Origin: a bacterium
Lineage (GTDB): Bacteria; UBA8248
Direction: 5' to 3'
DNA length: 64,000 bases
Assembly (NCBI GenBank): GCA_022828125.1
Contig: JAJEJD010000019.1
Location: 78,875 to 142,874, forward strand
Below the pieces are notes generated by a model, which did not search any database, was not told where the DNA came from, and saw only the letters and a program-made list of their open reading frames with translations. Numbering within the stretch: the first letter of the stretch is position 1; the number at the start of each line of letters is the position of its first letter. A program made the translations under genes and the position numbers. Positions 6,403 through 64,000 of this stretch are shown in pieces.

Positions 6403-6597
6403 CTAATATATACATATGCTTCTGTCGTCTTTTTCACCTTGCTCTATACCTCGCGACATACGGTCTAAGCTTTTCCGACCTCCCAACAAAACCCTTACAC
6501 CCAAATGGTCTATCTGCTCTCGCATGACTCCGTATCCCTCATTTTCTTCGTCAGATACTTCGTCTTTTATGATGATACTAATTGAATTGAATGGCAT
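6403..6597 (-). CDS. Small acidic protein (64 aa), translationally coupled to the upstream HEPN-like gene
   Basis: Its ATG overlaps the stop of the 6598-7266 gene (gtgTGAATGcc on the coding strand). Acidic stretch DEVSDEENEGYG. No recognisable family. Confidence 0.35.
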   Translation of the reverse strand: MPFNSISIIIKDEVSDEENEGYGVMREQIDHLGVRVLLGGRKSLDRMSRGIEQGEKDDRSICIY

Positions 6598-7266: not shown

Positions 7267-7461
7267 GTAATATTCTCCGATTCATTTTTGGTCTGTATAA
7301 ACTTCTCACCCCATCTACAAAAATGTTAATATTTACCTTGCTCAGTAAAATCGGGCGGACACAGAGGTCCGCCCCTACGAAACCATCTTGTTTTCTACAT
7401 GGATTGGGACCGCAAACACTTCCTCACCGGTCGGAGGAATTCCTCCTTCATCAGTCGGAAT

Positions 7462-8196: not shown

Positions 8197-8228
8197 CGTG
8201 TTCTCCCGTTTTGCAGTGCCTTTCAGGC

Positions 8229-8519
8229 TCATCCGGCCTCCGCCTCCGGCGGGCCGCCTCGCTCATTGAACTTCTCCGCGCACGCCACGCTGCAGAACGA
8301 ACGCCTGCCGCCGCCCGCGCGCTTCGTAATCCCGATGCGCGACGGGAAGAACGTCGCACACTCGGGGCAGTTGAGCATCTCGTCGTCGAGGCCGCCTTCG
8401 GCCTCGGGATTCTTCCGTCCCGCACCCGTGATACCGCTGATGAGACTACGAATAAGATAATATATCAACCAGGACAAAACCAGATAAAAAATGATGCGCA
8501 GCATGAGCCGGGGCCTCAC
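8229..8519 (-). CDS. Small membrane protein with C-terminal Cys4 zinc-ribbon
   Basis: N-terminal TM helix IIFYLVLSWLIYYLI, then CPECATFF...CSVACAEKF. Confidence 0.5.
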   Translation of the reverse strand: MRPRLMLRIIFYLVLSWLIYYLIRSLISGITGAGRKNPEAEGGLDDEMLNCPECATFFPSRIGITKRAGGGRRSFCSVACAEKFNERGGPPEAEAG

Positions 8520-8579
8520 GAGGTGAGAGCAGAATCGGAAAAACGCTACTCTACACCCTGAACCGACGGATGGAAACGG

Positions 8580-11831
<3,252 letters not shown>

Positions 11832-12019: not shown

Positions 12020-12150
12020 CGTCAGGGGACAAAGGCAACCCCCCCTACCCCCCCTTGTCAGGGGGGTATAAAAAGGCGATGCGCCCTCGCCGCCGGTGGA
12101 AGGGGTTTTGCTTTTTCTTGCCCCCCTGACAAGGGGGGGTAGGGGGGGTT
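12020..12150. mobile_element. MITE-like palindromic element, family A (G/C-run inverted termini AACCCCCCTACCCCCCCTTGTCAGGGGGG ... CCCCCCTGACAAGGGGGGGTAGGGGGGGTT), inserted between carA and carB
   Basis: Near-perfect ~30-bp terminal inverted repeats. Same element at 51536-51738, 57140-57302, 58897-59046 and as solo ends at 50885-50942 and 56794-56845. Confidence 0.7.
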
Positions 12151-12197
12151 AAAAGGCGCAAACACTCGTTCCTCATTCGCATCCCCCGTGCGCACCC

Positions 12198-15651: not shown

Positions 15652-16176
15652 CTATCGCTTGTAAACGGCGTCCTGGCCGTCGGTCTCCTCCAGATGCACC
15701 CGCACCTCCTCGGGATGGACCGCCTCAATGTTCTTCCCGACGAAATCGGCGCGGATGGGCAGTTCCCGCCCGCCCCTGTCCACCAGGATGGCGAGCCGCA
15801 CCCTGCGGGGCCGGCCGAAGCCCATGAGCGCGGCCAGGGCGGCGCGCGCCGTGCGGCCCGTGTAGAGCACGTCGTCGACGAGAACCACGTCTTTCCCCTC
15901 GCAGGAGAAGGGCAGGTCCGTCTTCTTGAGGCCGGTCCTCACGCCTCCGCCCTGGTTGAGGTCGTCGCGGTAGAGCGTCACGTCGAGCGCGCCCACGAGC
16001 GGATGCACGCCCACCAGCGACTGGAGCTCCCGGGCCAGCCTCTCCGCGAGCGGCGCGCCCCTCGTGCGAACCCCGATGAACACGAGATCCGACAGATCGG
16101 CCGTTCGCTCGATAATCTCATGCGAGAGGCGCCTCAGGGTGCGCCTCAGCTGCTCGGCGTCGAGTTGTTTAACCAT
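15652..16176 (-). CDS. pyrR: Bifunctional pyr operon regulator / uracil phosphoribosyltransferase PyrR
   Basis: Start at [18 protein letters not shown]-binding [13 protein letters not shown]. Confidence 0.9.
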
Positions 16177-16412
16177 GACCGGCGTCCGGCGTATGCGCGT
16201 AAGCGGGGCGCAAAAAAAACTCCATACCCAAAGGGCATGGAGTGCCGGGAACAGGCGAGAAAATGGCAAGCATTCGCGCTTCCTCCTTCGCCGCCTCACG
16301 GGACGACATTAAAGGGGAATCTCTCAATCATCAGGCTGTTTTCACCCGGCGAAGAACCTGCCGGGCCATTTCCCGAAAACTAGCAGTCTTTCCGAGAAAG
16401 AGCAAGAGGGAA

Positions 16413-48823: not shown

Positions 48824-49012
48824 GCGCGCACGCTTTTGAAGTTCACTCCCCCCTTGAGGGGGAGTCGAGGAAGCCGAGCGGTTTGTGCGAAGGCTGACTC
48901 GGTGGGGGGTGAAATGCGTTTTATCGCCATCCGAATTATACCCCCCACCGGCGCGACTTCTGGCTTCGCCCTCGTCTTGCCGACTCCCCCTCAAGGGGGG
49001 AGTTGATTTCCT
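48824..49012. mobile_element. MITE-like palindromic element, family B (termini CACTCCCCCCTTGAGGGGGAGTC ... GACTCCCCCTCAAGGGGGGAGTG)
   Basis: Long imperfect palindrome. Same family at 50501-50654, 56528-56700, 56863-57080, 58608-58762 and flanking the DUF559 gene at 60358-60853. Confidence 0.7.
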
Positions 49013-49104
49013 TCTTTCCAGGTCGGCGGCTACCTTCAAAAGCGATTGATTGATCCGCGGACCCATCGGCGCTAGGATGGCGTGAATCCGCTTTCCGCAG
49101 ACCT

Positions 49105-49650
49105 TTGGACACCCCCATGACGCGAATCGCCATCATGACGGCGCCAGAACTCGAACTCTCGCTCAAGAGGATAGCCTCCGAGATGACCGAGGCGTGCGCG
49201 GCGGATAAGGACATCGCCCTCATCGGCGTGCTCACCCGGGGAGAACCGCTCGCGCGGCGCCTGGCGGGGCACATCGAAGAGATGGAGGGCGTCTCGCCGC
49301 CTCTGGGCGCACTCGACATCGGCCTCCACCGAGACGACGGCGGCCACCCCGCCGAGGGGCGCGGCTTCGAGCGCACCCTCATCGATTTCGACCTGACGGG
49401 CCGGGGCGTGTTCCTTATCGACGACGTCTTCTTCACGGGCAGGACGGCCCGCGCGGCCATCGACGCCCTGATGGAGCTGGGCCGCCCGCGCAAGATATGG
49501 CTCGCCGCCCTCATCGACCGGGGCCACCGCGAGCTCCCCTTCCGGCCCGACTTCATCGGCAAGAACGTGCCCACCGCGCTTGCGGAGCGCATCCGGGTGC
49601 GGACCCGCGAGGTCGACGGCGAGGACGGCGTCTGGCTGGAGCGGGAGTGA
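49105..49650 (+). CDS. pyrR: PyrR-like regulator / uracil phosphoribosyltransferase (second paralog)
   Basis: 181 aa. PRPP motif VFLIDDVFFTGRT. About 45% identical by eye to the operon-encoded PyrR. Confidence 0.75.
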   Translation: MDTPMTRIAIMTAPELELSLKRIASEMTEACAADKDIALIGVLTRGEPLARRLAGHIEEMEGVSPPLGALDIGLHRDDGGHPAEGRGFERTLIDFDLTGRGVFLIDDVFFTGRTARAAIDALMELGRPRKIWLAALIDRGHRELPFRPDFIGKNVPTALAERIRVRTREVDGEDGVWLERE

Positions 49651-49654
49651 GAGC

Positions 49655-49860
49655 AAATGCGGGCAAATGCGGGGTTGCGGAAAACGCTTTATTTTCCGGA
49701 ATTTCTTAATGTATTACTTTAGATACTTCCTGCAACGGGATGATTATATTTCCTGATTCCACGAATCCGCTTTTCGGTAATTTATCGAAAAACCCCGTGA
49801 ATTTACCGGAATTTATCGATATTTACCGTATTTTACGGGAAATATCATTACTTTCATTTC
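49655..49860 (+). repeat. AT-rich ~200-bp noncoding element, copy 2
   Basis: CAAATGCGGGCAAATGCGGGG then TTAATGTATTACTTTAGATACTTCCTGCAAC ... GGAATTTATCGATATTTACCGTATTTTACGGGAAAT. Collinear with copy 1. Confidence 0.55.
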
Positions 49861-50500
49861 CGCCTCGCTCCCGCATCCATGCGCGCCGCCCCCGGCGGGA
49901 AAAAGCCCTGTGGAGGGGTTGCCGGAGAAACTTCGTGATGGTTCTGTAGCAGGACAACCCAAAAGGGTTGTCCTGCCCTCCGTGGTTGTCCTTCGTCAGG
50001 ACAGGCACAGAGGCCACGGACAGGCGCAGGGGCCTGTCCGCTACGGGGTCGGTGGCCAAAACGATGAGCGATAGCGCGTTCACCGCCTCCACCCTCGCCC
50101 GTTCGCCCGGTTCCATCAGAAAGCCTCCTCTCCCCGGGGTTGTTGAAAAAGTCCATCGAGGAGGAAGTGACGCCTGCGCCTCCGCCCGGTTTCGGGTTTT
50201 GGCCGTCATTCCCTCACCTCTCGGCGGGGGGGAGGACACACAGTCAGACATATATGTCTGACCCCTACGGAACCATCGCGTCTTGACCCGTAGGGGCGGA
50301 CCTAAGTGTCCGCCCGCTCTCGAAACAGGGTTTCTCAACAACCCCTCCCCGGGGCGGTCGCTCCCGGTTGATCGAGCAGGGATCGCCGTTTCCCCGCTTC
50401 GCGCGCACGATAGCCGGGTACGCGATTTCACGGAGTACGGCAAATGCGGGGAAATGCGCGGCGCGCGAAGATCGCTCCCCACCGAGGAGAATTTCAAATC

Positions 50501-50654
50501 CACTCCCCCCTTGAGGGGGAGTCACAGAGGCCGAGCGGTTTGTGCGAAGGCCGATGTGGTGGGGGGACATGCCACAGAAAAACTCCCCCCACCGGTTCGG
50601 TTTCGGGCAAAATCCCCCTCACCTCACCGACTCCCCCTCAAGGGGGGAGTGAAT
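50501..50654. mobile_element. MITE family B copy
   Basis: Termini as in 48824-49012. Confidence 0.7.
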
Positions 50655-51069
50655 ATGAACCTCGTCTGAGGTAAAAACCCCGTCCCGCCGACGTTTGACG
50701 ACGCGCGGAACACCTTTTTATACTGAACGTCCACGAGAGTTTCAGGAGACCCTGATTTTTCACCCATGACAAGACCCGCACGTATGCGTGGGGCGATCCC
50801 GAGGAGGGATCGCCACCTGCAACAGCATCCCGACCGACCCGCAAGGATTTTTTCAACAGCCCCCTCAAGGGGGGAGTTGATCTTTTTTGCGGGGTGTTGC
50901 CTTTTCATACCCCCCTGTCAAGGGGGGGTAGGGGGGTTGCCTTTCGCGGCGCCTGGACGCTTGACGAGGCGCGACCCCTCTTTTCATCGGGATTCAATAC
51001 GATACCCGACAAGAGGAATGAGGGAGGGAACTGAAAATGTGCGGAGAACTCACCAGGGGAAAAGGCGCC

Positions 51070-51489
51070 ATGCGGATAAAGCGGTTCGCCATTGCCATGT
51101 TCTTGATGTTTCTGGCAGCGGGGTGTCAGGACGATGCGGATATCGCATCGTATAATCTGTCGAAGTCGGCGGACAATTTCGAGATCGACCGGAGAATCGT
51201 GTTCTACAACGGGATTACGGATACTTATATGTTGACAATCGAGGGGCGGTGCTCGATTGAGGATCAGGAGAACCAGCTTGAAGTTACATGCAAGCTGGGG
51301 AGCGACAGTTTCAAGAAACATTTTTTGGGGTTGAGCGATAATGTGACGTATTTTGCGGAGCAACTGGACACGGCGGACGTGAGCGTATTCCATCACCGGA
51401 TCACGTTCAAGCCTCGGCAGATTGTTCCGGATGTTGATTTAAGAAATAGTCCGGGAGAAATGATTCAGGATCGCCCGGAGAATAAATAG
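51070..51489 (+). CDS. Lipoprotein of unknown function
   Basis: MRIKRFAIAMFLMFLAAGCQ lipobox. Host-like codon usage, but sits in the repeat zone. Confidence 0.5.
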   Translation: MRIKRFAIAMFLMFLAAGCQDDADIASYNLSKSADNFEIDRRIVFYNGITDTYMLTIEGRCSIEDQENQLEVTCKLGSDSFKKHFLGLSDNVTYFAEQLDTADVSVFHHRITFKPRQIVPDVDLRNSPGEMIQDRPENK

Positions 51490-51535
51490 CGAAGCGGCGA
51501 GCGGGCGCGTTCGGCGCGCCCTCCCTCGCCTGAAA

Positions 51536-51738
51536 ACCAACCCCCCCTACCCCCCCGTGACAGGGGGGTATAAAAAGGCGACGCCCACCGCCGGACGCTC
51601 GCCACCGATAGAGGGGCTTTTGTTTTTTCTTACCTCCCTGATAAGGGGGGGATATAAAAAGGCGATGCGCTCCCACCGGGCTGAGGGGGGTTTGCTCTTT
51701 CTTACCCCCCTGTCAAGGGGGGGTAGGGGGGGTTGGTT
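51536..51738. mobile_element. Array of two to three MITE family A units
   Basis: Repeated CCCCCCTACCCCCCC-TGACAGGGGGG-TATAAAAAGGCGA units. Confidence 0.7.
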
Positions 51739-52077
51739 TTTCTCGGGGCAAGAGGGGTTCGTGCGGAAACACGCAAAAGAGGCGGCCCCCTTCACGGGAC
51801 CGCCTCCTTGAATCCATCCGTCCGGGCTTGCCAAACGCGCCCGAACCGCGTATTAAGTCAGCTGGGGGTTACTCATTATTCCCGTCCCAAACCGAGAGGA
51901 CTCAAACTCTGTAGCATGGGCCGGTACAATTTGCTCCCGACGATGTAGAGCAACCAATGAGTAACCCCCAAAGGTCACGCGTCCCTTCCCGGCAACCTGC
52001 CCTTTCCTGTTTCTGACTCGCTTATCAGGCCCGCCCCGGCCCCGGGTCAGGCCAGGAGCCAAAGGCGTCTTTCTTCG

Positions 52078-53718
52078 TTACCTGTTCGCCGCGAACGACC
52101 CGATCAAAGCCGCGCTTCCCGCCGGATTGCTCTGCTGCGTGGCGTAGAAGGTCCCCGCCACCGAACCGGGAGCCTCGGCCGAATACGTCGTCGTTACCGT
52201 TCTTTGCGGATCATTCGTATCAATCGTTTCCGTTTTCGTGGATCTTCTGTTTCTTATTCCGAAGAACTGGCCCTTCCAGTCGCCGCTGAAGGATTTGCCG
52301 TCGACCACGCCGACGGCTTCGCCCCCGAAAGCGGCTTCAATGGTAGTTCCAATTCCAAATTTAGGCTCCTGTAACTCGATGCTCCCCGCGATGGATTTCC
52401 CGGCAGCGACGATGTTGGTGACTGCACCCTCGATGCTTCCCGAACCCGTCCCGGCTGCGTTCTGGAACTCGGCAGTGAGCGTAACGTCCGCCTCGAAGTA
52501 GCTCATATTGCCGTCCGCGAGGTAGGCGCCGTTCGCATCTCCCCGGTAGGTCGCCGTCATATCCTTGTCTTCCGCGACGAAATCGGTAATTTGGTTTAAA
52601 GTTCCTGTATCACCGCAAACTCTGGTAACACCTGTGCCACCTGCCGGGTCACTTACATTTTCAATACCGGTACAGAAGTTCTGAGTGGTAGTGGGGATCG
52701 GTTGGCTCCCGTACGCGAACGCCTCTATCGCATTACTCTGGACCCAGATGCCCGCGAGCAGGTAGTCCGTGTCGGCCACGTCTGCCGTTGTATACCGCTC
52801 GTCGTCGGGCGTTCCCGTATCGTCTGCCAGCGTAGCCGTTCTCATTCTGACGTCGGCCCTCGTTTTCGTAATGTCCGTGTAGGCGTTAACGAGAATGGAG
52901 TTGTCGGCGTTTTTCAGATCGAAGCCGTTAGGAAGGCGGCCCGTTCCGCTGAGTTTCGGCGTCTTGCTGTTCGATGAAAGGGTATTTACCGTAACCCCGC
53001 GCTCACCAACGACTCTGTCCGCGCCGGTCCCGGTATCTTTGGGGTATGTAGCTACATTTCCTCCAGTAGCCTCACCTATAGTCAAGGGATCCGTATTAGT
53101 GTTCACCAGGTCTGCCAGAATCGCGTCATAAATGATCTTGTTCTCTCTCACGTGCTGGATAAGCCCGGAGCCGTTCGTCGCGAGTTCCTCGTCCCTTTGC
53201 TGTTGTTCGCGAAGGTTCGCCACCGCATTCACGGCGCTCAGGAGAGACGCCAATGATTGTTGGGCGCTTATCAGGTCGTTCAGCGCCGCTTGTGCGTCCA
53301 ACACCGCGCCTTCCGCCTGCGCTCCCGTGGTGGCCACGTTCGCCACGGCGCTCGCGGTTACGATGTCCGTCAGCGCGTTCCGCGCGGCGTCGCCGAGGGA
53401 GCCTGCGCTTGTAATCTGCGCCTCCGTGGCGTCGTCGTGGCCCTGCACGGCCGAAGCGTCCGAGCGCGCCAATCCCTCACGCGTCCGGGCGTCGGCGATG
53501 ATCCCCGCGAGCGTATCCAGCGCCGCTTCGATTCTTTCCTCATCCGTCGGCGGCGGATCCGTGCAGTTCGGGTACGTTCCGACCTGACCCTGCGGGCATT
53601 CCATCACCGGCGGCATCTCTTCCGCAGTACCGCCGCCACCGCCACCGCCGCAACCGGAGGCAAATGCCGCAATGCACACGACAAGTACCGCCAATCTAAA
53701 AAGCTTGAGCATTTCCAT
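52078..53718 (-). CDS. Surface lipoprotein with TbpB/fHbp-like C-terminal beta-barrel (paralog 1)
   Basis: Lipobox AAFASGCGGGGGGG. Ala-rich helical region. C-terminal GDWKGQFFG...AGTFYATQ...GSFAANR resembles TbpB-like lipoprotein C-lobe handle. Confidence 0.6.
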   Translation of the reverse strand: MEMLKLFRLAVLVVCIAAFASGCGGGGGGGTAEEMPPVMECPQGQVGTYPNCTDPPPTDEERIEAALDTLAGIIADARTREGLARSDASAVQGHDDATEAQITSAGSLGDAARNALTDIVTASAVANVATTGAQAEGAVLDAQAALNDLISAQQSLASLLSAVNAVANLREQQQRDEELATNGSGLIQHVRENKIIYDAILADLVNTNTDPLTIGEATGGNVATYPKDTGTGADRVVGERGVTVNTLSSNSKTPKLSGTGRLPNGFDLKNADNSILVNAYTDITKTRADVRMRTATLADDTGTPDDERYTTADVADTDYLLAGIWVQSNAIEAFAYGSQPIPTTTQNFCTGIENVSDPAGGTGVTRVCGDTGTLNQITDFVAEDKDMTATYRGDANGAYLADGNMSYFEADVTLTAEFQNAAGTGSGSIEGAVTNIVAAGKSIAGSIELQEPKFGIGTTIEAAFGGEAVGVVDGKSFSGDWKGQFFGIRNRRSTKTETIDTNDPQRTVTTTYSAEAPGSVAGTFYATQQSNPAGSAALIGSFAANR

Positions 53719-53860: not shown

Positions 53861-55588
53861 TTACTCAGCCTTCCACGAGCCGAACGAGCCAAGAATGCTC
53901 ACGGGCGTATTTCCGCCGCCCGTAGCGGCGAAGGTGCCGGCCGCTGTCGTGGGGTATTCGGTTCGAGCCGCCATGGAATCCGCGGCCTCTTCGTTCGGGC
54001 CGTAGAACTGGCCGCCCCACATGCCTTTCAGCAATTGGCCTCCCACGGTGCCCTCGGCGGCGCCATCGAAGCCGCCTGTGCTGTCGCCGTTCTCTGCGCC
54101 CGCGATGACGGGCGCCCTCTTGAGCTCCAGCATGCCGGCCACATCCATGCCGCCGGCCCTGATGCCTGAGACGCTTCCGGTTACGGCGCCTATGAGCAGT
54201 CCGTCATTTTCGTCGGCGTTGCCGGTTGCCGGAGTGGAATCAGCCCCGACGGTGCCGCCGAAGTTGGCCGTCAGGCTCACGTCCGCGTCAAAGTACTCGA
54301 CCATGCCGCCCGCCGAATACATGCCCGTCGCGACGCCGTTATACGTCGCCGTGCCCGTGAGTTCGGCCCTGACCTGGAACGCGTCGCTGCCGCTCGCGAA
54401 TGCGCCGGCAACGGCCAAGTCCGTGGCTTCCGTAGCGTCCGGAACCGTCAGCCAGACGCCCCAGGCCAGATAGTCGGCGTCGAGCACTGGAGACGTGCCG
54501 GAAGCGATGGGCTGGAACGTATAGCCCTGAAGCGCCACGATAGCGCCCTTGTCGTCGACGCTGATCGAGCAGGCGGTGCCTGCGACGCAGTTGAACCGCC
54601 CCGTCTCCGTCGGGATGTTGTCGGTAGCGGACACGTTACGCGTCCCCGTGAAGGTTTTGCCGTTCCCTGGAATATCGCCCGTGATGATATGGCCTACTGC
54701 CAAGGCGGTAGCGCTATCAGCTCCATAATTCTGCCTCATCATGGGCGCCTGGATGTCCGTGTAGACGTTGACGTAGGTGTCGGAAGCGGCATTCTCCAGC
54801 AACTCTCTGCCCATCCAGTCCCCACGGGTCGTCAGCAACGCCGGGGTTTCGCCTCTCTGCAACGCGGTGCCGACGCCGGCTACTGTGATTGTAGGTCCAT
54901 TCGCGCCGTGAGCCACCGTTGCGCTGGCGGCCGGGGGGCCTTGAGAAACGCTTCCGGCTTCAACACCGGGACCATCAGTTACAGCGGTTTGTTCGGCGGC
55001 TTCACCGGCCACCGTTGCCAACTCCGTGCCGACTCTCGTCGCGTTGGAAACGGCTTTGGGCGCTTCCCGACCCTCGAGTACGGCATTGTCGATGGCCGCC
55101 TGGTTGGTGATCTTGTTCGCCAGCTTGGTCAGACCCAGGCCGCGCTCGCCGGCCGCTTCCATCGCCTTGTCGCGGGCCGCTTCGGCCGCCATCTGGTGCT
55201 CCATGGCCATTGCGGAAGTCGCCGCCGCCTGCGCAGCCGTGTTGGCTTCAGCTGCCATCGCCGCGTACGAGTGCGCGTTGCTGGCCGCCACGGGGTCTTT
55301 CGCGCCGTATACGGCCATCATCGCCGCCGAAGCCGCCGCCGCGGCCGCGTCCTGCGCGCCGCTCAGGGCCATCTCTTCGGCAAGATCCGCAGCGGAGGTG
55401 CAGGAACCGTCCGCGTTATACCGGCCACCGTCACCCTCGCACATTTCCTGCGCGGAAGGTGGTTCCGGCATCGGCATCGGTTCCTCTTCAACGGCAGCCG
55501 TTCCGCCGCCGCCGCAGCCGGCCAGCGTCAGCGCGAAGGCCGCCGCCAGCATGAATGAAAAGATTTTGTTGCCAGTGAGTTTCATCAC
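53861..55588 (-). CDS. Surface lipoprotein with TbpB/fHbp-like C-terminal beta-barrel (paralog 2)
   Basis: Lipobox LTLAGCGGGG. Shares with paralog 1 a Cys-x(n)-Cys loop just after the lipobox, YF(E/D)ADV(T/S)LTA(E/N)F, DYL(L/A)xG(I/V)W and the C-terminal G(Q/M)WxGQF(F/Y)G...GTF(Y/A)AT...GSF motifs. Confidence 0.6.
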   Translation of the reverse strand: MMKLTGNKIFSFMLAAAFALTLAGCGGGGTAAVEEEPMPMPEPPSAQEMCEGDGGRYNADGSCTSAADLAEEMALSGAQDAAAAAASAAMMAVYGAKDPVAASNAHSYAAMAAEANTAAQAAATSAMAMEHQMAAEAARDKAMEAAGERGLGLTKLANKITNQAAIDNAVLEGREAPKAVSNATRVGTELATVAGEAAEQTAVTDGPGVEAGSVSQGPPAASATVAHGANGPTITVAGVGTALQRGETPALLTTRGDWMGRELLENAASDTYVNVYTDIQAPMMRQNYGADSATALAVGHIITGDIPGNGKTFTGTRNVSATDNIPTETGRFNCVAGTACSISVDDKGAIVALQGYTFQPIASGTSPVLDADYLAWGVWLTVPDATEATDLAVAGAFASGSDAFQVRAELTGTATYNGVATGMYSAGGMVEYFDADVSLTANFGGTVGADSTPATGNADENDGLLIGAVTGSVSGIRAGGMDVAGMLELKRAPVIAGAENGDSTGGFDGAAEGTVGGQLLKGMWGGQFYGPNEEAADSMAARTEYPTTAAGTFAATGGGNTPVSILGSFGSWKAE

Positions 55589-56527: not shown

Positions 56528-56700
56528 GAGCGCACGCTTTTGAAGTTCACTCCCCCCTTGAGGGGGAGTCACAGAGGCCGAGCGGTTTGTGCGAAGGCTG
56601 AATCGGTGGGGGGACATGCCACAGAAAAGCTCCCCCCACCGAGTCAGCCTTCACCTGTCGGTTCGGCTTCCTCGACTCCCCCTCAAGGGGGGAGTGAATT
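56528..56700. mobile_element. MITE family B copy (with conserved left flank GCGCACGCTTTTGAAGTT)
   Basis: Same termini and flank as 48824-49012. Confidence 0.7.
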
Positions 56701-56793
56701 TCTTCTCTACTCTGTCGACAACTTCCCGCAAGGCGTTGTTGAAAAAGGCCACATTTCAGGGGTAGAGGAGAAGCCCCTCTCGCCTGGAAAAGC

Positions 56794-56845
56794 AACCCCC
56801 CCTACCCCCCCTTGTCAGGGGGGTATAAAAAGGCGATGCCCACCG
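56794..56845. mobile_element. Solo end of MITE family A
   Basis: AACCCCCCCTACCCCCCCTTGTCAGGGGGGTATAAAAAGGCGATGCC. Confidence 0.6.
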
Positions 56846-56862
56846 ATGAGAGAGAAGAGAAT

Positions 56863-57080
56863 CACTCCCCCCTTGAGGGTTATTACCAAAGAAACAAGAA
56901 GGGAATTCACTCCCCCCTTGAGGGGGAGTCGAAGAGCTGAGGGCGTAAGCCCGAAAGCGATTCGGTGGGGGGAGTTTTTTTGTGGCATGTCCCCCCACCG
57001 ATTCAGCCTTCGCACAAACCGCTCGGCTTCATCGTCTGGCTTTCCCCTCGGGAAGCCAGACCCTCAAGGGGGGAGTTGAT
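56863..57080. mobile_element. Composite/nested MITE family B copy (duplicated left terminus)
   Basis: Two CACTCCCCCCTTGAGGG left ends 45 nt apart, then the perfectly palindromic core GCCGAGCGGTTTGTGCGAAGGC. Confidence 0.65.
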
Positions 57081-57139
57081 TTTCTCTCTCGTCGGTCGGT
57101 TACATGCGACAAATCCAGAGTTCCGGGGTTTTTCAACAA

Positions 57140-57302
57140 CCCCCTTGTCAGGGATAAAGGCCCCCCCCCTACCCCCCTTGACAGGGGGGCATGAAAAAGC
57201 AAAACCCTGGCCCGGTGGTGGGCGTCGCCTTTTTTCATATCCCCCACATGCCGGGGCGTCGGCCTTTTTTACCCCCCTGTCAAGGGGGGGTAGGGGGGGT
57301 TG
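57140..57302. mobile_element. Full-length MITE family A copy
   Basis: Both TIRs present. Internal palindrome GCAAAACCCTGGCCCGG...CCGGGGCGTCGGCC. Confidence 0.7.
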
Positions 57303-57563
57303 ATTTCATCAATCACGTTTCCCGTAGGAGCGGGGTGCCCGCCCGTTGTTGATATACGACCCTGGGACGCAGGACAGGCACGGAGGCCTGTCCCTACGGG
57401 ATCGAACCCGATTGATGCGGGAGGGATTCGTCGTAAAAACCCCCTACCCCCCTTCCCGCCGTTGTTGTAAGATGTCCCTCTCGGCCCGGGGGCGGCGCGG
57501 GTCTTGTAACCGCATTTGTATGCCACCGCATCCCGAGGCCGGGGGTTTTCGGGAGAATCCGAC

Positions 57564-58526
57564 ATGGCTCCCCCGCCCGACATTCCGGACCGCCTGCTCG
57601 TCGCCGTCGGCGGCAACGCGACCCACCCGCCCGAGATACGCGGCACCGCGGCGGAACAGGCCGCCATCGCCGCAGCGACCGGCCGCGCCCTGCTCCCGCT
57701 TCTGCAACTCCAGAACGAACTCATCATCACGCACGGGAACGGTCCCGTGGTCGGCAAGATACTCATGCGCCAGGCGGTATCGAGCGAGCAGGTGACGCCG
57801 ATGACGCTCGACATCTGCGTCGCCCACAGCCAGGGGGGCATCGCCTATCTCCTCATGCAGGCGTTCGAGAACGCGTTAAGACGCGCAGGGGATCCCCGCC
57901 ACGTGGTCTGCCTGCTGACGCAGGTGGAGGTCGACCCGGCGGACCCGGCCTTCGACGCGCCGACCAAGTTCGTGGGCTACACCTACACGGAAGAAGAGGC
58001 GAGGCGGTATGAACGCGAGATGGGCTGGACGTTCAAAGAAGACGGCGGCCGCGGCTGGCGGCACGTCGTCGCATCCCCAAAGCCTAAACACATCGTGGAC
58101 ATCTCGCTCATCGAGACGATCGCCAAAAGCGGCGCGGTCGTGATAGCGGGCGGCGGCGGGGGCATCCCCGTCGTGCGGGAAGCGGACGGGGCGCGGCGCG
58201 GACTCGCCGCCGTCATCGACAAGGATTTGACGTCCGCCCTCATGGCGAACGTCCTGGGGATCGAGACGATGATGATCCTGACCGCCGTGCCGAGGGTGGC
58301 GATCCACTTCGGGACGCCCGAGCAAAGAGAGCTGGATATGGTGTCGCTCGACGAGATCAAGAGATACCACGCCCAGGGCCACTTCCCGCCCGGCAGCATG
58401 GGCCCCAAGATAGAGGCGGCGATCCGCTTTCTGGAAGGCGGCGGCGAGCGGGTGCACATCGCCGCGCTGGAAGACGCCGTCCCCGCCCTGAGGGGTGATG
58501 CGGGGACGTGTGTGTATAAGAGGTAA
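57564..58526 (+). CDS. arcC: Carbamate kinase family protein
   Basis: Start at MAPPPDIPDRLLVAVGGNA. Amino-acid kinase fold motifs VAVGGNA, ITHGNGPQVG-like ITHGNGPVVG, GGGGGIPV. Confidence 0.8.
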   Translation: MAPPPDIPDRLLVAVGGNATHPPEIRGTAAEQAAIAAATGRALLPLLQLQNELIITHGNGPVVGKILMRQAVSSEQVTPMTLDICVAHSQGGIAYLLMQAFENALRRAGDPRHVVCLLTQVEVDPADPAFDAPTKFVGYTYTEEEARRYEREMGWTFKEDGGRGWRHVVASPKPKHIVDISLIETIAKSGAVVIAGGGGGIPVVREADGARRGLAAVIDKDLTSALMANVLGIETMMILTAVPRVAIHFGTPEQRELDMVSLDEIKRYHAQGHFPPGSMGPKIEAAIRFLEGGGERVHIAALEDAVPALRGDAGTCVYKR

Positions 58527-58607
58527 GGATGGGCGGTTTTGGTTCGTCATTCCGGCCTTGAGCCGGAATGACGGCGGTGGGCAATCGCGATTGATGAGGG
58601 AGGAATA

Positions 58608-58762
58608 CACTCCCCCCTTGAGGGGGAGTCACAGAGGCCGAGCGGTTTGTGCGAAGGCCGATGTGGTGGGGGGAGATTTATTCTGTGGCATGTCCCCCCA
58701 CCGATTCGGTTTCGGGTTTACACCCTCACCTCATCGACTCCCCCTCAAGGGGGGAGTGAATC
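58608..58762. mobile_element. MITE family B copy
   Basis: As above. Confidence 0.7.
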
Positions 58763-58896
58763 CTTCTCTTCGTCGGCGGGGAATTCCCTCCAAGGGGGAG
58801 CGACTTCGGACAGGCACGGAGGCCTGTCCCTACGATTCCTCCCGCGTCAATCGCGTTTCACCTGTAGGGGGTTGTTGAAAAAACCTGTGTAAAAAA

Positions 58897-59046
58897 ACCA
58901 CCCCCCCCTACCCCCCCTTGACAGGGGGGTAAGAAAAAGCAAAACCCCTGGCCCGGCGGCGGGCGTCGTCTTTTTTCATATCCTCCACTTGCCGGGGCGG
59001 CGGCCTTTTTATACCCCCCTGTCAAGGGGGGGTAGGGGGGGTTGGT
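58897..59046. mobile_element. Full-length MITE family A copy
   Basis: Near-identical to 57140-57302. Confidence 0.7.
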
Positions 59047-59223
59047 TTTCAAGGCGAAAGGGTACGACCCCGGACAGGTCGCGACCTGCCCCTACAAAAC
59101 CCTCCTCTTATTATATACACCCCCTTTGCACACCCTCTCCCTGCGGTGCTACGTTTTTCCCCATAAAAATTCCGGTATCCACGAGCGCGCAGGCGCGCGC
59201 CTTTTCAAAAGGGGGGACGCAAG

Positions 59224-60327
59224 ATGCAGGCCGACCTGTTCCGCGTGGCGATGGACTCGCCCGACGACATCTCAGGGGTCGCCGCTCTCATCGAGGGGGG
59301 CGAATGCCGGGCGGAGGACGTCGTCGGCATCATGGGCAAGACCGAGGGCAACGGCTGCGTGAACGATTTCTCGCGCGGGTTCAGCAACTTCGTCCTGCTC
59401 GATTATTTCTCGCGCGCGATGGGCAAGAGCCGCGAGGAGGTGGAGGCGCAGATCGCCCTCATCATGTCCGGCGGAACCGAAGGCGTCATGTGCCCGCACT
59501 TCTCCGTGTTCACGAAGTCGGAGAACGGCGCGGGCGACGGGCGCGCCAAGCGCCTCGCCATCGCCTCGGGCCACACGGCGGATTTTTTCCCTGAGGAGAT
59601 GGGCCGGATGGCGCAGGTGCGCGCGACGGCGGACCTCGTGCGGAGGCTGATGGAAGAGGCGCAGATCGAGAGCGCGGCGGATCTCCACTTCGTCCAGGTG
59701 AAGTGCCCGCTCCTGACGGGCGAGCGCATGGCGGACGCGGCGAAGCGCGGGAAGAGCGTCTGCACGGAGGACACGTATAAGTCGATGGGCTACTCGCGCG
59801 GGGCTTCGGCGCTGGGGGTGGCCCTGGCGGCGGGCGAGGTGGCCGAAAGCGCGTTGAGCGACGAGGTGATTTGCAGGGACTGGTCGCTCCAATCGGGCGT
59901 CGCCTCGACCTCGGCGGGCATCGAGCTCATGTGCAACGAGGCGATGGTGATCGGCAACAGCGCGGCCTGGGGCGGGGACCTCGTCGTCGGCCACAGCGTG
60001 ATGGAAGACGCCATCGACAGGGATGCCGTGCGCGAGGCCATCGTGAACGCAGGGGTGGCGTTCGAGTGGTCGCTCACGCCCGAGCAGCGCGCGCGCGTCG
60101 TGAACGTCTTCGCCAAGTGCGAGGCCTCCCCCGACGGGCTGGTGCGCGGGCGGCGGCACACGATGCTCGACGACTCGGACATCAACAACACGCGCCACGC
60201 GCGCTCGGTGGTGAACGCGGTGGTGTCCTCTATCGTCGGCGACACGATGACCTACGTCTCGGGCGGGGCCGAGCACCAGGGCCCTCCCGGCGGCGGCCCC
60301 GTCGCGGCGGTCGTAAGGGCGGGGTAG
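59224..60327 (+). CDS. Ring-opening amidohydrolase of the cyanuric acid amidohydrolase / barbiturase (AtzD/TrzD) family
   Basis: 367 aa. N-terminus ...GKTEGNGCVNDFSRG and the internal threefold repeat architecture are characteristic of this family. Confidence 0.6.
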   Translation: MQADLFRVAMDSPDDISGVAALIEGGECRAEDVVGIMGKTEGNGCVNDFSRGFSNFVLLDYFSRAMGKSREEVEAQIALIMSGGTEGVMCPHFSVFTKSENGAGDGRAKRLAIASGHTADFFPEEMGRMAQVRATADLVRRLMEEAQIESAADLHFVQVKCPLLTGERMADAAKRGKSVCTEDTYKSMGYSRGASALGVALAAGEVAESALSDEVICRDWSLQSGVASTSAGIELMCNEAMVIGNSAAWGGDLVVGHSVMEDAIDRDAVREAIVNAGVAFEWSLTPEQRARVVNVFAKCEASPDGLVRGRRHTMLDDSDINNTRHARSVVNAVVSSIVGDTMTYVSGGAEHQGPPGGGPVAAVVRAG

Positions 60328-60357
60328 GGGGGGGCCGCTACCAGCGAGATATGCAAT

Positions 60358-60853
60358 CACTCCCCCCTTGAGGGGGAGTCGAAGAGGCCGAGCCATTGGG
60401 CGAAGGCCGATTCGGTGGGGGGTAAAACGAGATGGGTGAAAGCGGACGTCAATACAATCCCCGGCATTTGGGAAACGCCCGCGCCCTCCGCCGTGATCAC
60501 ACCGACGCTGAAGGGTTGCTGTGGAGTCGCCTGCGCGACAAACAGATCGATGGCCACAAATTCCGCCGCCAGCAACCGATAGGTCCGTATATCGCGGATT
60601 TCGCGTGCATGACGGAAAAACTGCTGATCGAACTCGACGGCGGAGGCCATGCGGAGCAAAAAGCAAAGGACCGCCGGCGCGAAGAATATCTGCGGCGCAG
60701 TGGTTATCGCGTGCTGCGTTTCTGGAATACGGAGGTCTTTGAGAATCTTTCCGGTGTTCTGGAAAGAGTGCGAGAAGCGCTAGCAGACCCCCCCACCGAT
60801 TCAGCCTTCGCATAAATCGCTCGGCTTCATCGACTCCCCCTCAAGGGGGGAGT
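60358..60853 (+). mobile_element. Full-length family B element carrying a DUF559 endonuclease gene (putative autonomous progenitor of the family B MITEs)
   Basis: Left end CACTCCCCCCTTGAGGGGGAGTCGAAGAGGCCGAGC...GGTGGGGGG and right end CCCCCCACCGATTCAGCCTTCGCA...GACTCCCCCTCAAGGGGGGAGTG are the same arms that abut directly in the MITE copies. Confidence 0.65.
60432..60815 (+). CDS. DUF559 (Vsr/Mrr-like PD-(D/E)xK) endonuclease-domain protein
   Basis: 127 aa. ...AEGLLWSRLRDKQIDGHKFRRQQPIGPYIADFACMTEKLLIELDGGGHAEQKAKDRRREEYLRRSGYRVLRFWNTEV is the canonical DUF559 pattern. Confidence 0.8.
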   Translation: MGESGRQYNPRHLGNARALRRDHTDAEGLLWSRLRDKQIDGHKFRRQQPIGPYIADFACMTEKLLIELDGGGHAEQKAKDRRREEYLRRSGYRVLRFWNTEVFENLSGVLERVREALADPPTDSAFA

Positions 60854-60957
60854 GATTTTATCTCTGCTTGGTCGACAAAACCTACAGAGGTCCCCCCTTC
60901 GGACAGGGGCGGAGGCCTGTCCGCTACGAATGGAACCTGTTTGAACAGAGAAGAACC

Positions 60958-62022
60958 CTACCCCGCCCTCACATTCCGCCGCGCCTGCACGAAGACGACC
61001 GTGAGGACGATGATGGCCTGGAAGACGAACACGGCGGCGCCGGGGAGGCCGATGCTGCGCTGTAAGGAATCCGACCCCGAGACGAGGACGGCGAACACGG
61101 CGGCGGCTATAGTGACGCCGAGCGGGTTGTTGCGCCCGATGACGGCGATGAGGATGGCCATCGCCCCGTAGTTGGGCGCGCCCTCAGCGCCGCTGATGCC
61201 CAATAACAGGCTCTGGTGGAAGCCCGAGACCTCGATGGCGCCCGCGAGGCCCGAGAGCGCGCCGCAGGTCGGCATGATGATGAGCGTGACGCGCGCGACG
61301 TTGATGCCGCCGAAGCGCGCGGCGCGGGGGTTGTCGCCCACCGCGCGTATCTCGTAACCCGCGATGGTGCGCGTCATGAAGAAGTACATGCCGACCGCCG
61401 CCACGAGCGCGATGATGAAGCCCGCGTGCGCGCCGGCCCTCGGCATCACCTGCGGCAGCACGGAGGCGTCGGGGATGGGGAGCGAGATGGCCTCGCCCGC
61501 CAGCGGGTCGTTCCAGGGGCCGTTCGCGAGGTAGTCCACGAGGTAGAGCGCCACGAAGTTCAGCATGACCGTCACGAATATCTCGCTCACCTGGAAGCGC
61601 ACGCGCAGGATGCCGGGGATGAAGCCCCAGAACCACCCGCCGAGGATTCCGCCCAGCAGTCCCAGCGGGACGAAGACCGGCCAGGGGAGGTTCATGCCTT
61701 CCAGGGCGAAGGCCGTGCCCGTCATGCCGATGGCGCCCGCGTATATCTGCCCGTCCACGCCGATGTTGAAGTGGCCGCCGCGCATCCCGAAGGCCACCGC
61801 GAGCGAGGCGAGAAGCAGCGGGGAGAACTTGTTGAGCGTCTGCGCGAATCCGCCCCACGTGCCGAGCGAGGAGCGAAGCACCGTCCCGAGCGCCACGAGC
61901 ACGTCGCCGCCGAAGGCGACGATGAAGACGGCCCCGCAGGCGAGCGCCAGCGCCCCCGCCGCCGCGTAGGTGACGGCGAACTCCATCGCGACTTTTTTCT
62001 TCTCGCTCACGCCCGCCGCCAT
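60958..62022 (-). CDS. ABC transporter permease (BMP-family nucleoside/simple-sugar type)
   Basis: 354 aa, about 9 TM helices. Confidence 0.85.
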   Translation of the reverse strand: MAAGVSEKKKVAMEFAVTYAAAGALALACGAVFIVAFGGDVLVALGTVLRSSLGTWGGFAQTLNKFSPLLLASLAVAFGMRGGHFNIGVDGQIYAGAIGMTGTAFALEGMNLPWPVFVPLGLLGGILGGWFWGFIPGILRVRFQVSEIFVTVMLNFVALYLVDYLANGPWNDPLAGEAISLPIPDASVLPQVMPRAGAHAGFIIALVAAVGMYFFMTRTIAGYEIRAVGDNPRAARFGGINVARVTLIIMPTCGALSGLAGAIEVSGFHQSLLLGISGAEGAPNYGAMAILIAVIGRNNPLGVTIAAAVFAVLVSGSDSLQRSIGLPGAAVFVFQAIIVLTVVFVQARRNVRAG

Positions 62023-62023
62023 C

Positions 62024-63571
62024 TCAGGACACCTCTTCTCTCTGGCCCGCCATGAGCGCGCCTATCCGGTAGATGTCGTATTCAGGGCCGTCGAAAGCGC
62101 CCAGAATCTCGCCCGCATAGATGGCGACGATGCGGTCGCTCATCAGGCAGAGCTCGTCCAGGTCTTCCGATATCAGCAGCACGCCCGCCCCGCCCGCGCG
62201 AAGCTCGCGCAGCCGGCCGTGCACGAACGAGGCGGCCATGACGTCGAGCCCGCGCGTGGGGTTGTTCGCGATCATCACCTTCCCGCCCGTCTCGTGGGCG
62301 AGCATGACCGCGCGCGCCACGATGGTCTTCTGGATGTTCCCGCCCGAGAGGTGCGCGGCCGGCACGTGCTCGTTGCGCGCGAGGATGTTGAATTCCGCGA
62401 TGGCGTTCCTGCCGAGCTCATGAGCGGCCTCGCGCTCGAATACGCCGCGCCGCCTGAAGATGTGGGGATGGAGGCCCAGCACGAAGTTCTCGGCCAGGCT
62501 CAGGCCCGGCAGAATCCCCTCCTCTATCCTGTCCTGCGGCAGGAGGCTCATCCCCCGCGCGATGCGCCCGGCCACCGAGAGAGCGGAGACCTCCTCGCCG
62601 TCGATGTGGACCTCCCCTTCTTCCACCTCGATCAGGCCGGCCACCGCTTCCGCCAGCTCCTTCTGGCCGTTCCCCGAGATGCCCGCCATGCCGACGATGA
62701 GCCCCCGGGGGACGTCGAAGGCGACGCCGGTGAGCGGCACCCCCCACTTCGCCGACGTGCGCACCCCCCGCACCGAAAGCGCGGGCTCCCCCTCCCTGGC
62801 CACCGAGGGTCCGGTCGGCCGCTCGCCCTCGGGAGGCATGCCGCGCTCGCCCATCATCATCCGGACGAGTATTTCGCGGGTGGCTTCTTCTCTGGGGATG
62901 GTGTCTATCTTCCGCCCGCCGCGGAACACGGTGATGCGGTCGCAGTTGTCCAGCACCTCCTGGATCTTGTGCGTGATGAAGACGACCGTCAGCCCCCCCC
63001 TGGCGAAGGATTTCAGGATAGTGAACAGCCCGTCCACCTCGTGGGGGGTCAGCATGGTCGTCGGCTCGTCCAGGATCAGGATGTCCGCGCCGTGGTAGAG
63101 GGCCTTCAGTATCTCGACCTTCTGCTGGATGCCCGCGGGCAGGCTCTTCACCCCCTCATCGAGCGGGATGGAGAGGCCGTAATTCGCCGCGAGTTCCTCC
63201 ACGGAGCTGCGCCGGGCTTCGACGTCGAGCCGCCAGCGCGAGCCCTCGCGGCCCAGCAGGATGTTCTCGAGCGCGGTGAAGTTGCCGATCAGCTCCACGT
63301 GCTGGTGCACCATCCCGACGCCGACCGCGATCGCATCCTGGGGCGAGTGGATGTCCACCTCGCGCCCTTCGATCGCGATCTGTCCCTCATCCATGCGGTA
63401 GAGGCCGCTCAGGATGTTCATGAGCGTGGTCTTGCCCGCGCCGTTCTCGCCCAGGAGGGCGTGGATCTCCCCCTCCGCGGCCTCGAAGTCGACCGCGTCC
63501 AGGGCGCGGACTTCCCCGAAGGACTTGCTGACGCCGTACATCTCGACGCAAGCGGCGGTTTTTTCCGTCAT
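62024..63571 (-). CDS. ABC transporter ATP-binding protein with duplicated ABC domains (nucleoside/sugar type)
   Basis: Two ABC domains; the first has a canonical Walker A (GENGAGKTT), the second domain's P-loop is degenerate. LSGG signatures in both. Confidence 0.9.
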   Translation of the reverse strand: MTEKTAACVEMYGVSKSFGEVRALDAVDFEAAEGEIHALLGENGAGKTTLMNILSGLYRMDEGQIAIEGREVDIHSPQDAIAVGVGMVHQHVELIGNFTALENILLGREGSRWRLDVEARRSSVEELAANYGLSIPLDEGVKSLPAGIQQKVEILKALYHGADILILDEPTTMLTPHEVDGLFTILKSFARGGLTVVFITHKIQEVLDNCDRITVFRGGRKIDTIPREEATREILVRMMMGERGMPPEGERPTGPSVAREGEPALSVRGVRTSAKWGVPLTGVAFDVPRGLIVGMAGISGNGQKELAEAVAGLIEVEEGEVHIDGEEVSALSVAGRIARGMSLLPQDRIEEGILPGLSLAENFVLGLHPHIFRRRGVFEREAAHELGRNAIAEFNILARNEHVPAAHLSGGNIQKTIVARAVMLAHETGGKVMIANNPTRGLDVMAASFVHGRLRELRAGGAGVLLISEDLDELCLMSDRIVAIYAGEILGAFDGPEYDIYRIGALMAGQREEVS

Positions 63572-63628
63572 CGCTTTCTTCCGTTCTTGCGCCCCGCCCT
63601 CTTCGCGGCGGCGGGGCGCTCAGGTGCC

Positions 63629-64000
63629 CTATTTCGCCAGCATGACCTTCTTCATCTCCAGCCGGGGCTTGATCTTCCCGGCGCGTACTTTTTCATACGC
63701 CTCTTTGGTTCGCTTCATGGCCTCGGCCGATACGTTGCCCAGAGAGGTGATCTCGAATCCGACCCCGAGCTGCATGGGCACGTATCCCCCGGGCGATCCT
63801 TTCAGGATGCCCGCCAGGGCCTTGCGGTAGGGCGGCCTGAAATCGATGATCAGCGTGCCGGCGAAGTGCTTGGGCGCCTTGTCCGTCTTGTCGGTGTAGA
63901 AGGTGGTGACCAGCACCTTGCGCTTCGACTTCTTGGCGGCCTCGACGACGCCGTACACGCCCAGGTTCACCATGTTGATGATGAAGTCGACGCCGCCCGC
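63629..64000 (-). CDS. BMP-family (Med/PnrA-like) ABC substrate-binding lipoprotein, partial (N-terminus beyond window end)
   Basis: C-terminal region ...VLVTTFYTDKTDKAPKHFAGTLIIDFRPPYRKALAGILKGSPGGYVPMQLGVGFEI typical of BMP family. Confidence 0.7.
   Translation of the reverse strand, partial: AGGVDFIINMVNLGVYGVVEAAKKSKRKVLVTTFYTDKTDKAPKHFAGTLIIDFRPPYRKALAGILKGSPGGYVPMQLGVGFEITSLGNVSAEAMKRTKEAYEKVRAGKIKPRLEMKKVMLAK

Follow-up and report, generated by a model that had tools for sequence, protein, structure and literature searches.

Cyanuric acid is a high-volume industrial chemical and a common intermediate of s-triazine herbicide breakdown. The literature we searched describes only hydrolytic breakdown of it, for use as a source of nitrogen, as in plasmid pADP-1 of Pseudomonas sp. 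ADP (atzDGEHF, divergent from atzR-atzSTUVW), where AtzEG, AtzH and AtzF complete the pathway by hydrolysis and the LysR protein AtzR acts as regulator. The AllFGH family of another pathway was assigned a function only in 2024. In E. coli, AllFGH is an oxamic transcarbamylase that converts oxalurate and phosphate to oxamate and carbamoyl phosphate, from which AllK then generates ATP (PMC11326118, PMC9843812). Here, we describe an island with genes related to both systems at the end of a 64,000-nucleotide stretch of a bacterial contig of the GTDB lineage UBA8248 (GCA_022828125.1, JAJEJD010000019.1, positions 78,875 to 142,874, forward strand), hereafter the window. A prediction made from the letters of the window had proposed an accessory island that opens a ring-nitrogen compound and makes ATP through a carbamate kinase. 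This core idea was upheld, and we conclude that the island probably serves the uptake and phosphorolytic, rather than purely hydrolytic, breakdown of cyanuric acid, the s-triazine ring. Its genes in the window, and two that follow on a metagenome contig carrying the same AtzD protein (L002), are:

57564-58526 (+), predicted carbamate kinase of the AllK/ArcC type, 320 amino acids (aa); Pfam AA_kinase PF00696, NCBIfam subfamily NF009007
59224-60327 (+), AtzD-family cyanuric acid amidohydrolase (predicted), 367 aa; PF09663, NF052395; Toblerone fold
60958-62022 (-), first of two permeases of an ATP-binding cassette (ABC) importer; PF02653, 126.7 bits
62024-63571 (-), ATPase of the ABC importer, two fused nucleotide-binding domains; PF00005 twice
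63629-64000 (-), C-terminal 123 codons of the BMP-family substrate-binding protein; ends at the window edge
L002 10137-11687, AllF/FdrA homologue, 516 aa; HMA_AllF_N/Ligase_CoA; 39% identical to E. coli AllF
L002 11687-13105, AllG/DUF1116 homologue, 472 aa; Pfam AllG; 53% identical to E. coli AllG

The open reading frame (ORF) list and profile searches revealed that the carbamate kinase, the AtzD-family gene and the BMP-type ABC importer are all intact where the original prediction had placed them, with the binding-protein gene running past the window end. The exact AtzD protein is also found on two ENA metagenome contigs, L001 and L002. Beyond the importer, L002 carries a second permease (PermB) and then, on the opposite strand, a tight operon encoding a cyclase-family protein, AllF and AllG. 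The nearest genome records include metagenome-assembled genomes (MAGs) labelled Nitrospinota or Nitrospinaceae, and their AtzD proteins are 75-98% identical to that of the window.

Like pADP-1, the island pairs an AtzD-type hydrolase (53% identical) with an adjoining BMP-family ABC transporter made up of one binding protein, a tandem ATPase and two permeases; however, it has none of AtzEG, AtzH, AtzF and AtzR, and carries a carbamate kinase, the cyclase, AllF and AllG instead, with no dedicated regulator save a neighbouring PyrR paralogue. With E. coli allFGHK it shares AllF and AllG (at the identities listed), the kinase (40% identical) and the logic by which a ureide and phosphate yield carbamoyl phosphate and then ATP. 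The E. coli operon follows allantoin genes and acts on oxalurate, whereas the island is linked to AtzD and a triazine-type importer and lacks AllH, in whose place the cyclase-family hydrolase stands 5' of AllF. The same enzyme set, with AtzDs of the same clade, is found in AtzD-AllH-AllF-AllG clusters, with or without carbamate kinase, of Moorella, other Firmicutes, archaea and enterobacterial plasmids, but these keep AllH, mostly have an NCS2 permease and a 411-aa membrane protein rather than an ABC importer, and are accompanied by PucR or LysR regulators. In Rhizobium leguminosarum-type AtzD-BiuH clusters, a BMP-type ABC system is interleaved with atzD and cysteine hydrolases, and in comammox Nitrospira and ammonia-oxidising archaea bmpA-nupABC lies beside trtA/biuH/atzF and allFGHK (PMC12625717). 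Both rely on the cysteine hydrolase BiuH or on TrtA, while the island has AtzD and neither of these; the nitrifier survey reported no atzD in any genome examined and read allFGHK as oxalurate catabolism (PMC12625717). The island is a lineage-specific version (ABC importer, cyclase for AllH, riddled with miniature inverted-repeat transposable elements, or MITEs) of a widespread gene set. In a limited literature search we could not find a description of this gene set and its implied pathway or a paper linking cyanuric acid hydrolase with AllFGH or carbamate kinase; on cyanuric acid, biuret or allophanate together with carbamate kinase, AllFGH, FdrA, DUF1116 or DUF2877, it returned the nitrifier survey alone (PMC12625717).

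The AtzD-family protein matched PF09663 over its full length at 495.6 bits (cut-off 25), TIGR02714 at 514 bits (cut-off 153.1) and the NCBIfam cyanuric acid amidohydrolase equivalog NF052395 at 523.8 bits (cut-off 360), and its nearest assayed relatives are 53-66% identical. Its best solved structure was TrzD of Acidovorax citrulli (5T13, 488 bits), and the cyanuric acid hydrolases of Moorella thermoacetica (6BUM, 452 bits), pADP-1 (AtzD, 4BVQ, 384) and Azorhizobium (4NQ3, 342) also matched; barbiturase structures scored lower (5HWE, 271 bits; 5HY0, 227). All three Ser-Lys dyads of the family are present: K39/S82, K160/S230 and K298/S346 were invariant in a 15-sequence alignment, and their counterparts in the Moorella enzyme are Lys40/Ser83, Lys161/Ser231 and Lys299/Ser347. 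R51, which is equivalent to the cited Moorella Arg52, was also invariant, as were R192 and R324, which have no match to cited residue numbers. Judged by its sequence, the window enzyme is a cyanuric acid hydrolase and not a barbiturase, and its predicted opening of cyanuric acid to 1-carboxybiuret is well supported by homology. The original prediction had allowed a pyrimidine or a triazine ring; the triazine stands, and barbiturase was ruled out on the structure scores and the passed equivalog.

These scores also bear on a reading of the island as oxidative pyrimidine catabolism, in which a barbiturase would act on uracil-derived barbiturate under control of the second PyrR and with a nucleoside importer. 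That the AtzD family includes barbiturase, that BMP transporters are often nucleoside importers and that the PyrR paralogue abuts the kinase in one related chromosome (L006) all speak for it. It is nevertheless extremely improbable, given a barbiturase match of just 271 bits where cyanuric acid hydrolases reach 488 and 452, importer proteins that did not reach nucleoside-transporter models, and the profiled families of island genes, among which there was no candidate for uracil dehydrogenase or for the ureidomalonase that the original prediction had suggested looking for nearby. With no PyrR-binding RNA detected and PyrR missing from the island in four related genomes (see below), the pyrimidine reading appears largely refuted.

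ATP harvest by the carbamate kinase was likewise borne out, although the substrate had been given as carbamate and the enzyme uses carbamoyl phosphate. The kinase passed NF009007 (312.9 bits, cut-off 266), fell just under the cut-off of the arcC equivalog TIGR00746 (333.9 bits, cut-off 358.25) and is 40% identical to E. coli AllK (YbcF) over 311 residues; homology and context suggest that it converts carbamoyl phosphate and ADP to ATP, NH3 and CO2. Because it needs carbamoyl phosphate and not carbamate, the first model lacked a supply step, which AllF and AllG would provide. AllF passed the FdrA model NF004760 (441.1 bits, cut-off 433), and AllF and AllG are encoded together, as is expected of the subunit pair of an E. 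coli-type oxamic transcarbamylase. The cyclase-family protein belongs to PF04199 and has the metal motif HxGTHxDxPxH; among solved structures it is closest to metal-dependent hydrolases, kynurenine formamidases and isatin hydrolases. No homologues of allB, allC, allD or allE were found near the island, which thus has no allantoin gene context. The boundary between AllF and AllG is shifted, in that the first ~50 residues of AllG (L002:11687-11850) align with the C-terminal residues 506-554 of E. coli AllF.

The importer consists of a PF02608 binding protein, a tandem-domain ATPase and two PF02653 permeases, the second of which lies past the window end. The full binding protein, complete in L001 and L002, has 333 aa, of which the window tail represents residues 211-333, and the window permease is 89-98% identical in the related genomes L005, L006 and L010. 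No curated NCBIfam transporter equivalog was reached by any component (best "putative B6", 59-434 bits against cut-offs of 400-670), and the best model for the ATPase was far under its cut-off, so the substrate is not assignable from the ATPase. The "nucleoside" label of the original prediction is therefore unsupported; the nearest solved structure to the binding protein was AtzT of pADP-1 (6PI5, 80 bits), a nucleobase and triazine binder with affinities of 0.11 µM for guanine, 0.36 µM for ammeline and 2.2 µM for 2-hydroxyatrazine. In pADP-1, in Rhizobium and on a Klebsiella plasmid, atzD likewise has a BMP-type ABC system next to it. Because AtzT is nearest and BMP systems stand beside atzD, biuret and ureide genes elsewhere, the importer would be part of a BMP-family branch associated with triazines or ureides. 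Searched against plasmids, the binding protein matched only BMP proteins of ~30% identity, which lie in Rhizobium loci rich in amidases.

The neighbourhood is kept in close relatives and across phyla; with the Ser-Lys dyads also in place, neither of the two refuting conditions named in the original prediction holds. In L006, a 2.9-Mb chromosome whose AtzD is 86% identical, genes for a tetratricopeptide repeat (TPR) protein, a CCA enzyme, PyrR, carbamate kinase, AtzD, a permease, the ATPase, three BMP proteins, a second permease, the cyclase, AllF and AllG follow one another with short spacers and no MITEs, AllG being cut off by the end of the locus. L002 has the kinase, AtzD, importer, cyclase, AllF and AllG, and L005/L013, L012 and L014 keep AtzD, importer, cyclase, AllF and AllG with other genes 5' of AtzD. 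For a cross-phylum scan, we searched one genome per GTDB species with the AtzD alignment, kept the best 80 loci and called neighbouring genes by tblastn with the island proteins within 10 kb of AtzD. AllF and/or AllG were found in 28 of the 80 loci, 21 of which had carbamate kinase too. The carriers include Firmicutes (Carnobacterium, Enterococcus aquimarinus, Hungatella, Amphibacillus, Proteiniclasticum, Lachnospiraceae and Oscillospiraceae), other bacteria (Acholeplasma-type Mollicutes, Desulfovibrionaceae, Rokubacteria, Chloroflexota, an Eggerthellaceae MAG, Casimicrobiaceae and Huaxiibacter) and archaea (Bathyarchaeia and Nitrososphaera).

Gene order varies among these loci. In Bathyarchaeia, AtzD has AllG on one side and AllH-AllF on the other, and start and stop codons overlap. 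One genome and two plasmids retrieved apart from the scan show the linkage too. In Moorella sp. Hama-1, PucR is followed by membrane protein-AllH-AllF-AllG-AtzD, with an AtzD that is 86% identical to the biochemically characterised cyanuric acid hydrolase of M. thermoacetica. The same enzyme set is found on a segment of an E. coli IncC/IncR plasmid (pEsco-36073cz) bounded by the insertion sequence (IS) IS26 and on an IS3-flanked module of a Klebsiella IncF plasmid, the latter also with a BMP-type ABC system and atzF. The rest of the 80 loci are mostly proteobacterial and have AtzE, AtzF, AtzH or BiuH, or nothing recognisable. In a neighbour-joining tree, the AllFG-linked AtzDs formed one clade including the window protein (L052 fell outside it), and AtzE-, AtzF- and BiuH-linked enzymes, among them those of pADP-1 and Rhizobium, formed separate clades. 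Recurrence in many phyla puts the gene association far above what chance would give. Many of the clusters hold no enzyme besides AtzD, AllFGH and the kinase, which suggests that this set suffices.

We hypothesize that the ring compound enters the cell through the BMP-family ABC importer and that the AtzD/TrzD-type hydrolase, by way of its Ser-Lys dyads, then opens cyanuric acid to 1-carboxybiuret. This product decarboxylates to biuret within minutes, releasing CO2. AllF-AllG would then cleave the terminal carbamoyl group of the ureido chain with phosphate to yield carbamoyl phosphate for the kinase. Their candidate substrates are carboxybiuret, biuret or allophanate, which would be close analogues of oxalurate (H2N-CO-NH-CO-COO-) in that they share its H2N-CO-NH-CO- head or have an H2N-CO-NH-COO- head. 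The cyclase-family hydrolase may hydrolyse a leftover amide or substitute for the missing AllH subunit. We infer the AllFG substrate; of these steps, close homology backs ring opening alone. Whether the wider gene set represents a widespread, undescribed phosphorolytic s-triazine pathway, running from cyanuric acid hydrolase through an AllFG(H) carbamoyl-group phosphorylase to ATP from carbamate kinase, with the cyclase replacing AllH in Nitrospinota, is in our view evenly balanced.

If such a pathway operates, cyanuric acid would be a source of energy as well as nitrogen. Substrate-level phosphorylation would accompany its fermentation to NH3 and CO2, and probably that of biuret or allophanate. 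The AllFGH family would gain substrates beyond oxalurate, a role would emerge for those cyanuric acid hydrolases in Moorella and many Firmicutes that lack an adjoining biuret or allophanate hydrolase, and cyanuric acid mineralisation would extend to Nitrospinota and archaea. This Nitrospinota lineage has atzD with a complete-looking uptake and ATP-harvest set, in contrast to the surveyed nitrifiers, which have no atzD. Anaerobic degradation of cyanuric acid was readily observed in older reports, and a phosphorolytic route may explain it. The module may also be mobile, as the same set lies between IS elements on enterobacterial plasmids.

Several results weigh against this interpretation. The E. 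coli oxamic transcarbamylase needs all three subunits, and oxalurate is the only proven AllFGH substrate; a profile of AllH (DUF2877) found none in the window or in L001, L002, L005, L006, L010 and L012-L014 (10-kb flanks), while it matched a gene beside AllF in nearly all other AtzD-AllFG loci. In L005 and L012-L014, carbamate kinase does not adjoin AtzD. At about 53% identity in either case, the lineage's AllG is no nearer to other AtzD-linked AllGs than to its oxalurate-cleaving E. coli counterpart. In the AllG tree, those linked to AtzD are dispersed and form no clade, and the E. coli enzyme is no outgroup; homology thus does not reveal the substrate of phosphorolysis. In a survey from the AllG side (80 metagenome loci, 55 of them 7 kb or longer), AllF-AllG occurred in many contexts, with AtzD in only 2 of the 55 longer loci and cyclase-family genes and amidases in 13 each. 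One metagenome contig, L100 (described below), pairs a close relative of the module with a hydantoinase/oxoprolinase and not with AtzD, so the island could be a union of two modules that are partly independent. BiuH-like or AtzF genes are also present in some clusters linked to AllFG, and hydrolytic steps may still be used. Finally, AtzT binds cyanuric acid weakly (340 µM), preferring guanine and ammeline.

The proven oxalurate activity of AllFGH, the residual BiuH-like and AtzF genes and the frequency of AllF-AllG modules in contexts other than AtzD would also fit a hydrolytic, nitrogen-only pathway, the only kind described for cyanuric acid in the literature searched. AtzD would then form biuret, hydrolases encoded elsewhere would finish its breakdown, and the kinase and AllFG would be unrelated genes for oxalurate or allantoin. 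We consider this unlikely. In tblastn searches with AtzE, AtzF, AtzG and AtzH of pADP-1 and BiuH of Rhizobium, neither the window nor the 10-kb flanks of the lineage's loci gave a match, and allB/C/D/E are missing near AtzD as well. A linkage of AtzD to AllFG(H) in 28 of 80 species, with the kinase in 21 of these, that spans many phyla, shuffled gene orders and overlapping archaeal frames also argues against it, as do the many clusters with no other enzyme gene and the separate clade of AllFG-linked AtzDs.

The resemblance of the AllG proteins bears on a further explanation, a purine-derived ureide pathway in which the AtzD homologue opens a natural ring (oxonate, parabanate-like) to oxalurate and AllFG and the kinase act as in E. 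coli. The AllG of this lineage shares 53% of its residues with the E. coli protein that acts on oxalurate and groups close to it in the tree, AtzT-like binding proteins favour purine bases, and the Firmicute and Moorella clusters include PucR-type purine regulators and NCS2 nucleobase permeases. Yet the M. thermoacetica enzyme is an established cyanuric acid hydrolase whose 86%-identical orthologue sits in the Hama-1 AllH-AllF-AllG-AtzD operon, no Ser-Lys-Arg triad of the three-fold symmetric cyanuric acid site is lost in the window protein, which also passes the cyanuric acid hydrolase equivalog, and purine-oxidation genes are not among the genes nearby. A ureide pathway of this kind therefore has only a slim chance of being correct.

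Upstream of the island, the second PyrR paralogue noted in the original prediction is real:

49105-49650 (+), second PyrR paralogue (PyrR/uracil phosphoribosyltransferase family); NCBIfam PyrR equivalog NF003549

It scored 199.9 bits against NF003549 (cut-off 138). The other PyrR, at 15652-16299 (-; also given as 15661-16206), shares 46% identity with it and stands at the head of pyrB, pyrC and carB (8.5-16.3 kb). In the MITE-free L006, PyrR lies 126 nt 5' of carbamate kinase, and the two are also adjacent in L007 and L010; PyrR is absent from the island in four genomes (L005, L012-L014). No PyrR-binding RNA (RF00515) was detected at the Rfam gathering threshold across the window, with a model that derives mostly from other phyla, such that a divergent site is possible. 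Relaxed searches of 48.7-59.3 kb and of L006 6.7-10.1 kb returned only chance hairpin matches on MITEs. With the RNA element not found and the island occurring without PyrR, control of the island by PyrR was rejected; the second PyrR would be a syntenic neighbour of the island and a candidate regulator at most.

This adjacency would be explained if the island were anabolic, with the kinase and AllFG capturing ring carbamoyl units as carbamoyl phosphate for pyrimidine and arginine synthesis and not for ATP, carbamoyl phosphate being a pyrimidine precursor. Such a use is very improbable, because the window already encodes a full carbamoyl-phosphate synthetase and pyrB/pyrC with their own PyrR, the kinase would be superfluous for biosynthesis once AllFG makes carbamoyl phosphate, and its E. 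coli homologue AllK is catabolic.

MITEs among the island genes, also part of the original prediction, proved real and fell into two repeat families. The inserted elements in and near the island are:

51037-51489 (+), Phage_VG64-family small ORF; adjoins lipoprotein ORFs
56539-57320 (unstranded), MITE cluster 5' of carbamate kinase; family A copies and palindromic family B
58597-59062 (unstranded), MITE cluster between carbamate kinase and the AtzD gene; from repeat search and alignment
60340-60874 (+), mobile insertion enclosing the DUF559 ORF; inverted ends of MITE family A on both sides
60432-60815 (+), DUF559 (Vsr-like endonuclease) ORF; PF04480, 134.7 bits

The two families lie at 56.5-57.3, 58.6-59.06, 60.34-60.42 and 60.79-60.87 kb, with more copies at 12.0, 48.8 and 50.5-51.7 kb. 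Family A (~190 nt) has copies at 48835-49040, 50492-50671, 56539-56731, 56868-57112 and 58597-58798. The ends of the DUF559 element (~85 and ~75 nt, with terminal inverted repeats CACTCCCCCCTTGAGGGGGAGTCG) are those of family A, whose members align as the DUF559 element without its ORF; the element may be the parent or mobiliser of family A. Family B, a palindromic MITE or repetitive extragenic palindrome (REP)-like element (CCCCCCCTACCCCCCC...GGGGGGTA) at 12030-12156, 50890-51741, 56775-57320 and 58881-59062, forms strong hairpins followed by T-runs. Terminator-like matches numbered 22 in 56-61.1 kb against 5.4 +/- 2.4 expected, and those between carbamate kinase and AtzD (58951-59040) may split an operon that is tight in L006. 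The kinase-AtzD spacer is 697 nt in the window and 105 nt in L006, with 0.6 kb of MITEs inserted.

The spacer between AtzD and the permease is an insertion hotspot. The DUF559 element is missing from it in L005 and L006. In L010, the closest genome (AtzD 98% identical), this spacer holds two transposase-like ORFs of 476 and 449 aa (L010:11100-14860), judged from their translations only. Between PyrR and carbamate kinase, the window has ~8 kb of inserted DNA with repeats, the Phage_VG64-family ORF and two lipobox ORFs, at 52078-53718 (-; 546 aa) and 53861-55588 (-; 575 aa). These two look paralogous and match no Pfam family; both have a lipoprotein signal sequence and are Gly-rich after the Cys, and both are absent from L006. 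MITEs, DUF559 element and the two lipoprotein genes would be later insertions that spaced the island genes without breaking them.

Cyclase homologues at 50-57% identity sit in unrelated contexts. More distant cyclase-family genes follow AllG in 13 of the 55 longer metagenome loci. One such gene (20-28% identical) lies directly 3' of AllG in L102, L115, L120, L130, L141, L142, L149, L154, L160, L165, L167 and L168, in most of which an AllH-like gene precedes AllF to give the order AllH-AllF-AllG-cyclase. The pairing of PF04199 hydrolases with AllFGH is recurrent, and we found no description of it in the literature searched. L100 (metagenome contig PVBE010378342.1, 13.3 kb) encodes, at 297-11829, a hydantoinase/oxoprolinase, cyclase, AllF, AllG and carbamate kinase, then an AtzF-like gene, and no AtzD; its cyclase and AllG are 89% and 78% identical to those of the lineage module, and the 1314-aa hydantoinase/oxoprolinase was assigned from an N-terminal motif only. 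It appears to fit a portable cassette that takes ureide to carbamoyl phosphate to ATP and is reused with different ring openers.

A 22-nt motif, TTCATACATAATGCGCGCATTG, lies at L002:9302-9323, ~75 nt 5' of the cyclase-AllF-AllG operon, and stands in the same place in L005, L012 and L013. It contains a perfect 12-bp palindrome, AATGCGCGCATT, is kept upstream of the cyclase operon in these four relatives and could be an operator. An operator shared between the operons was rejected, as the motif has no second copy in the window.

Another conserved gene directly beside AtzD, usually accompanied by an NCS2 permease, encodes a membrane protein of ~411-425 aa with no Pfam family and faint GntP/DcuC similarity (L043:1346-2581, L024:11132-12394, L091:4838-6073, L094:8707-9942 and about 20 other loci). 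It occurs in Firmicutes including Moorella, in archaea and on the E. coli plasmid, and may represent a new type of transporter for cyanuric acid or compounds derived from it. AT-rich short repeats occur at two distant intergenic sites in the window, 3303-3432 and 49693-49841 (TTTCGGGAATTTATCGATATTTA... and TTTCGATAATTTTATAATGTATTACTTTAATATA...), one of them just 3' of the second PyrR.

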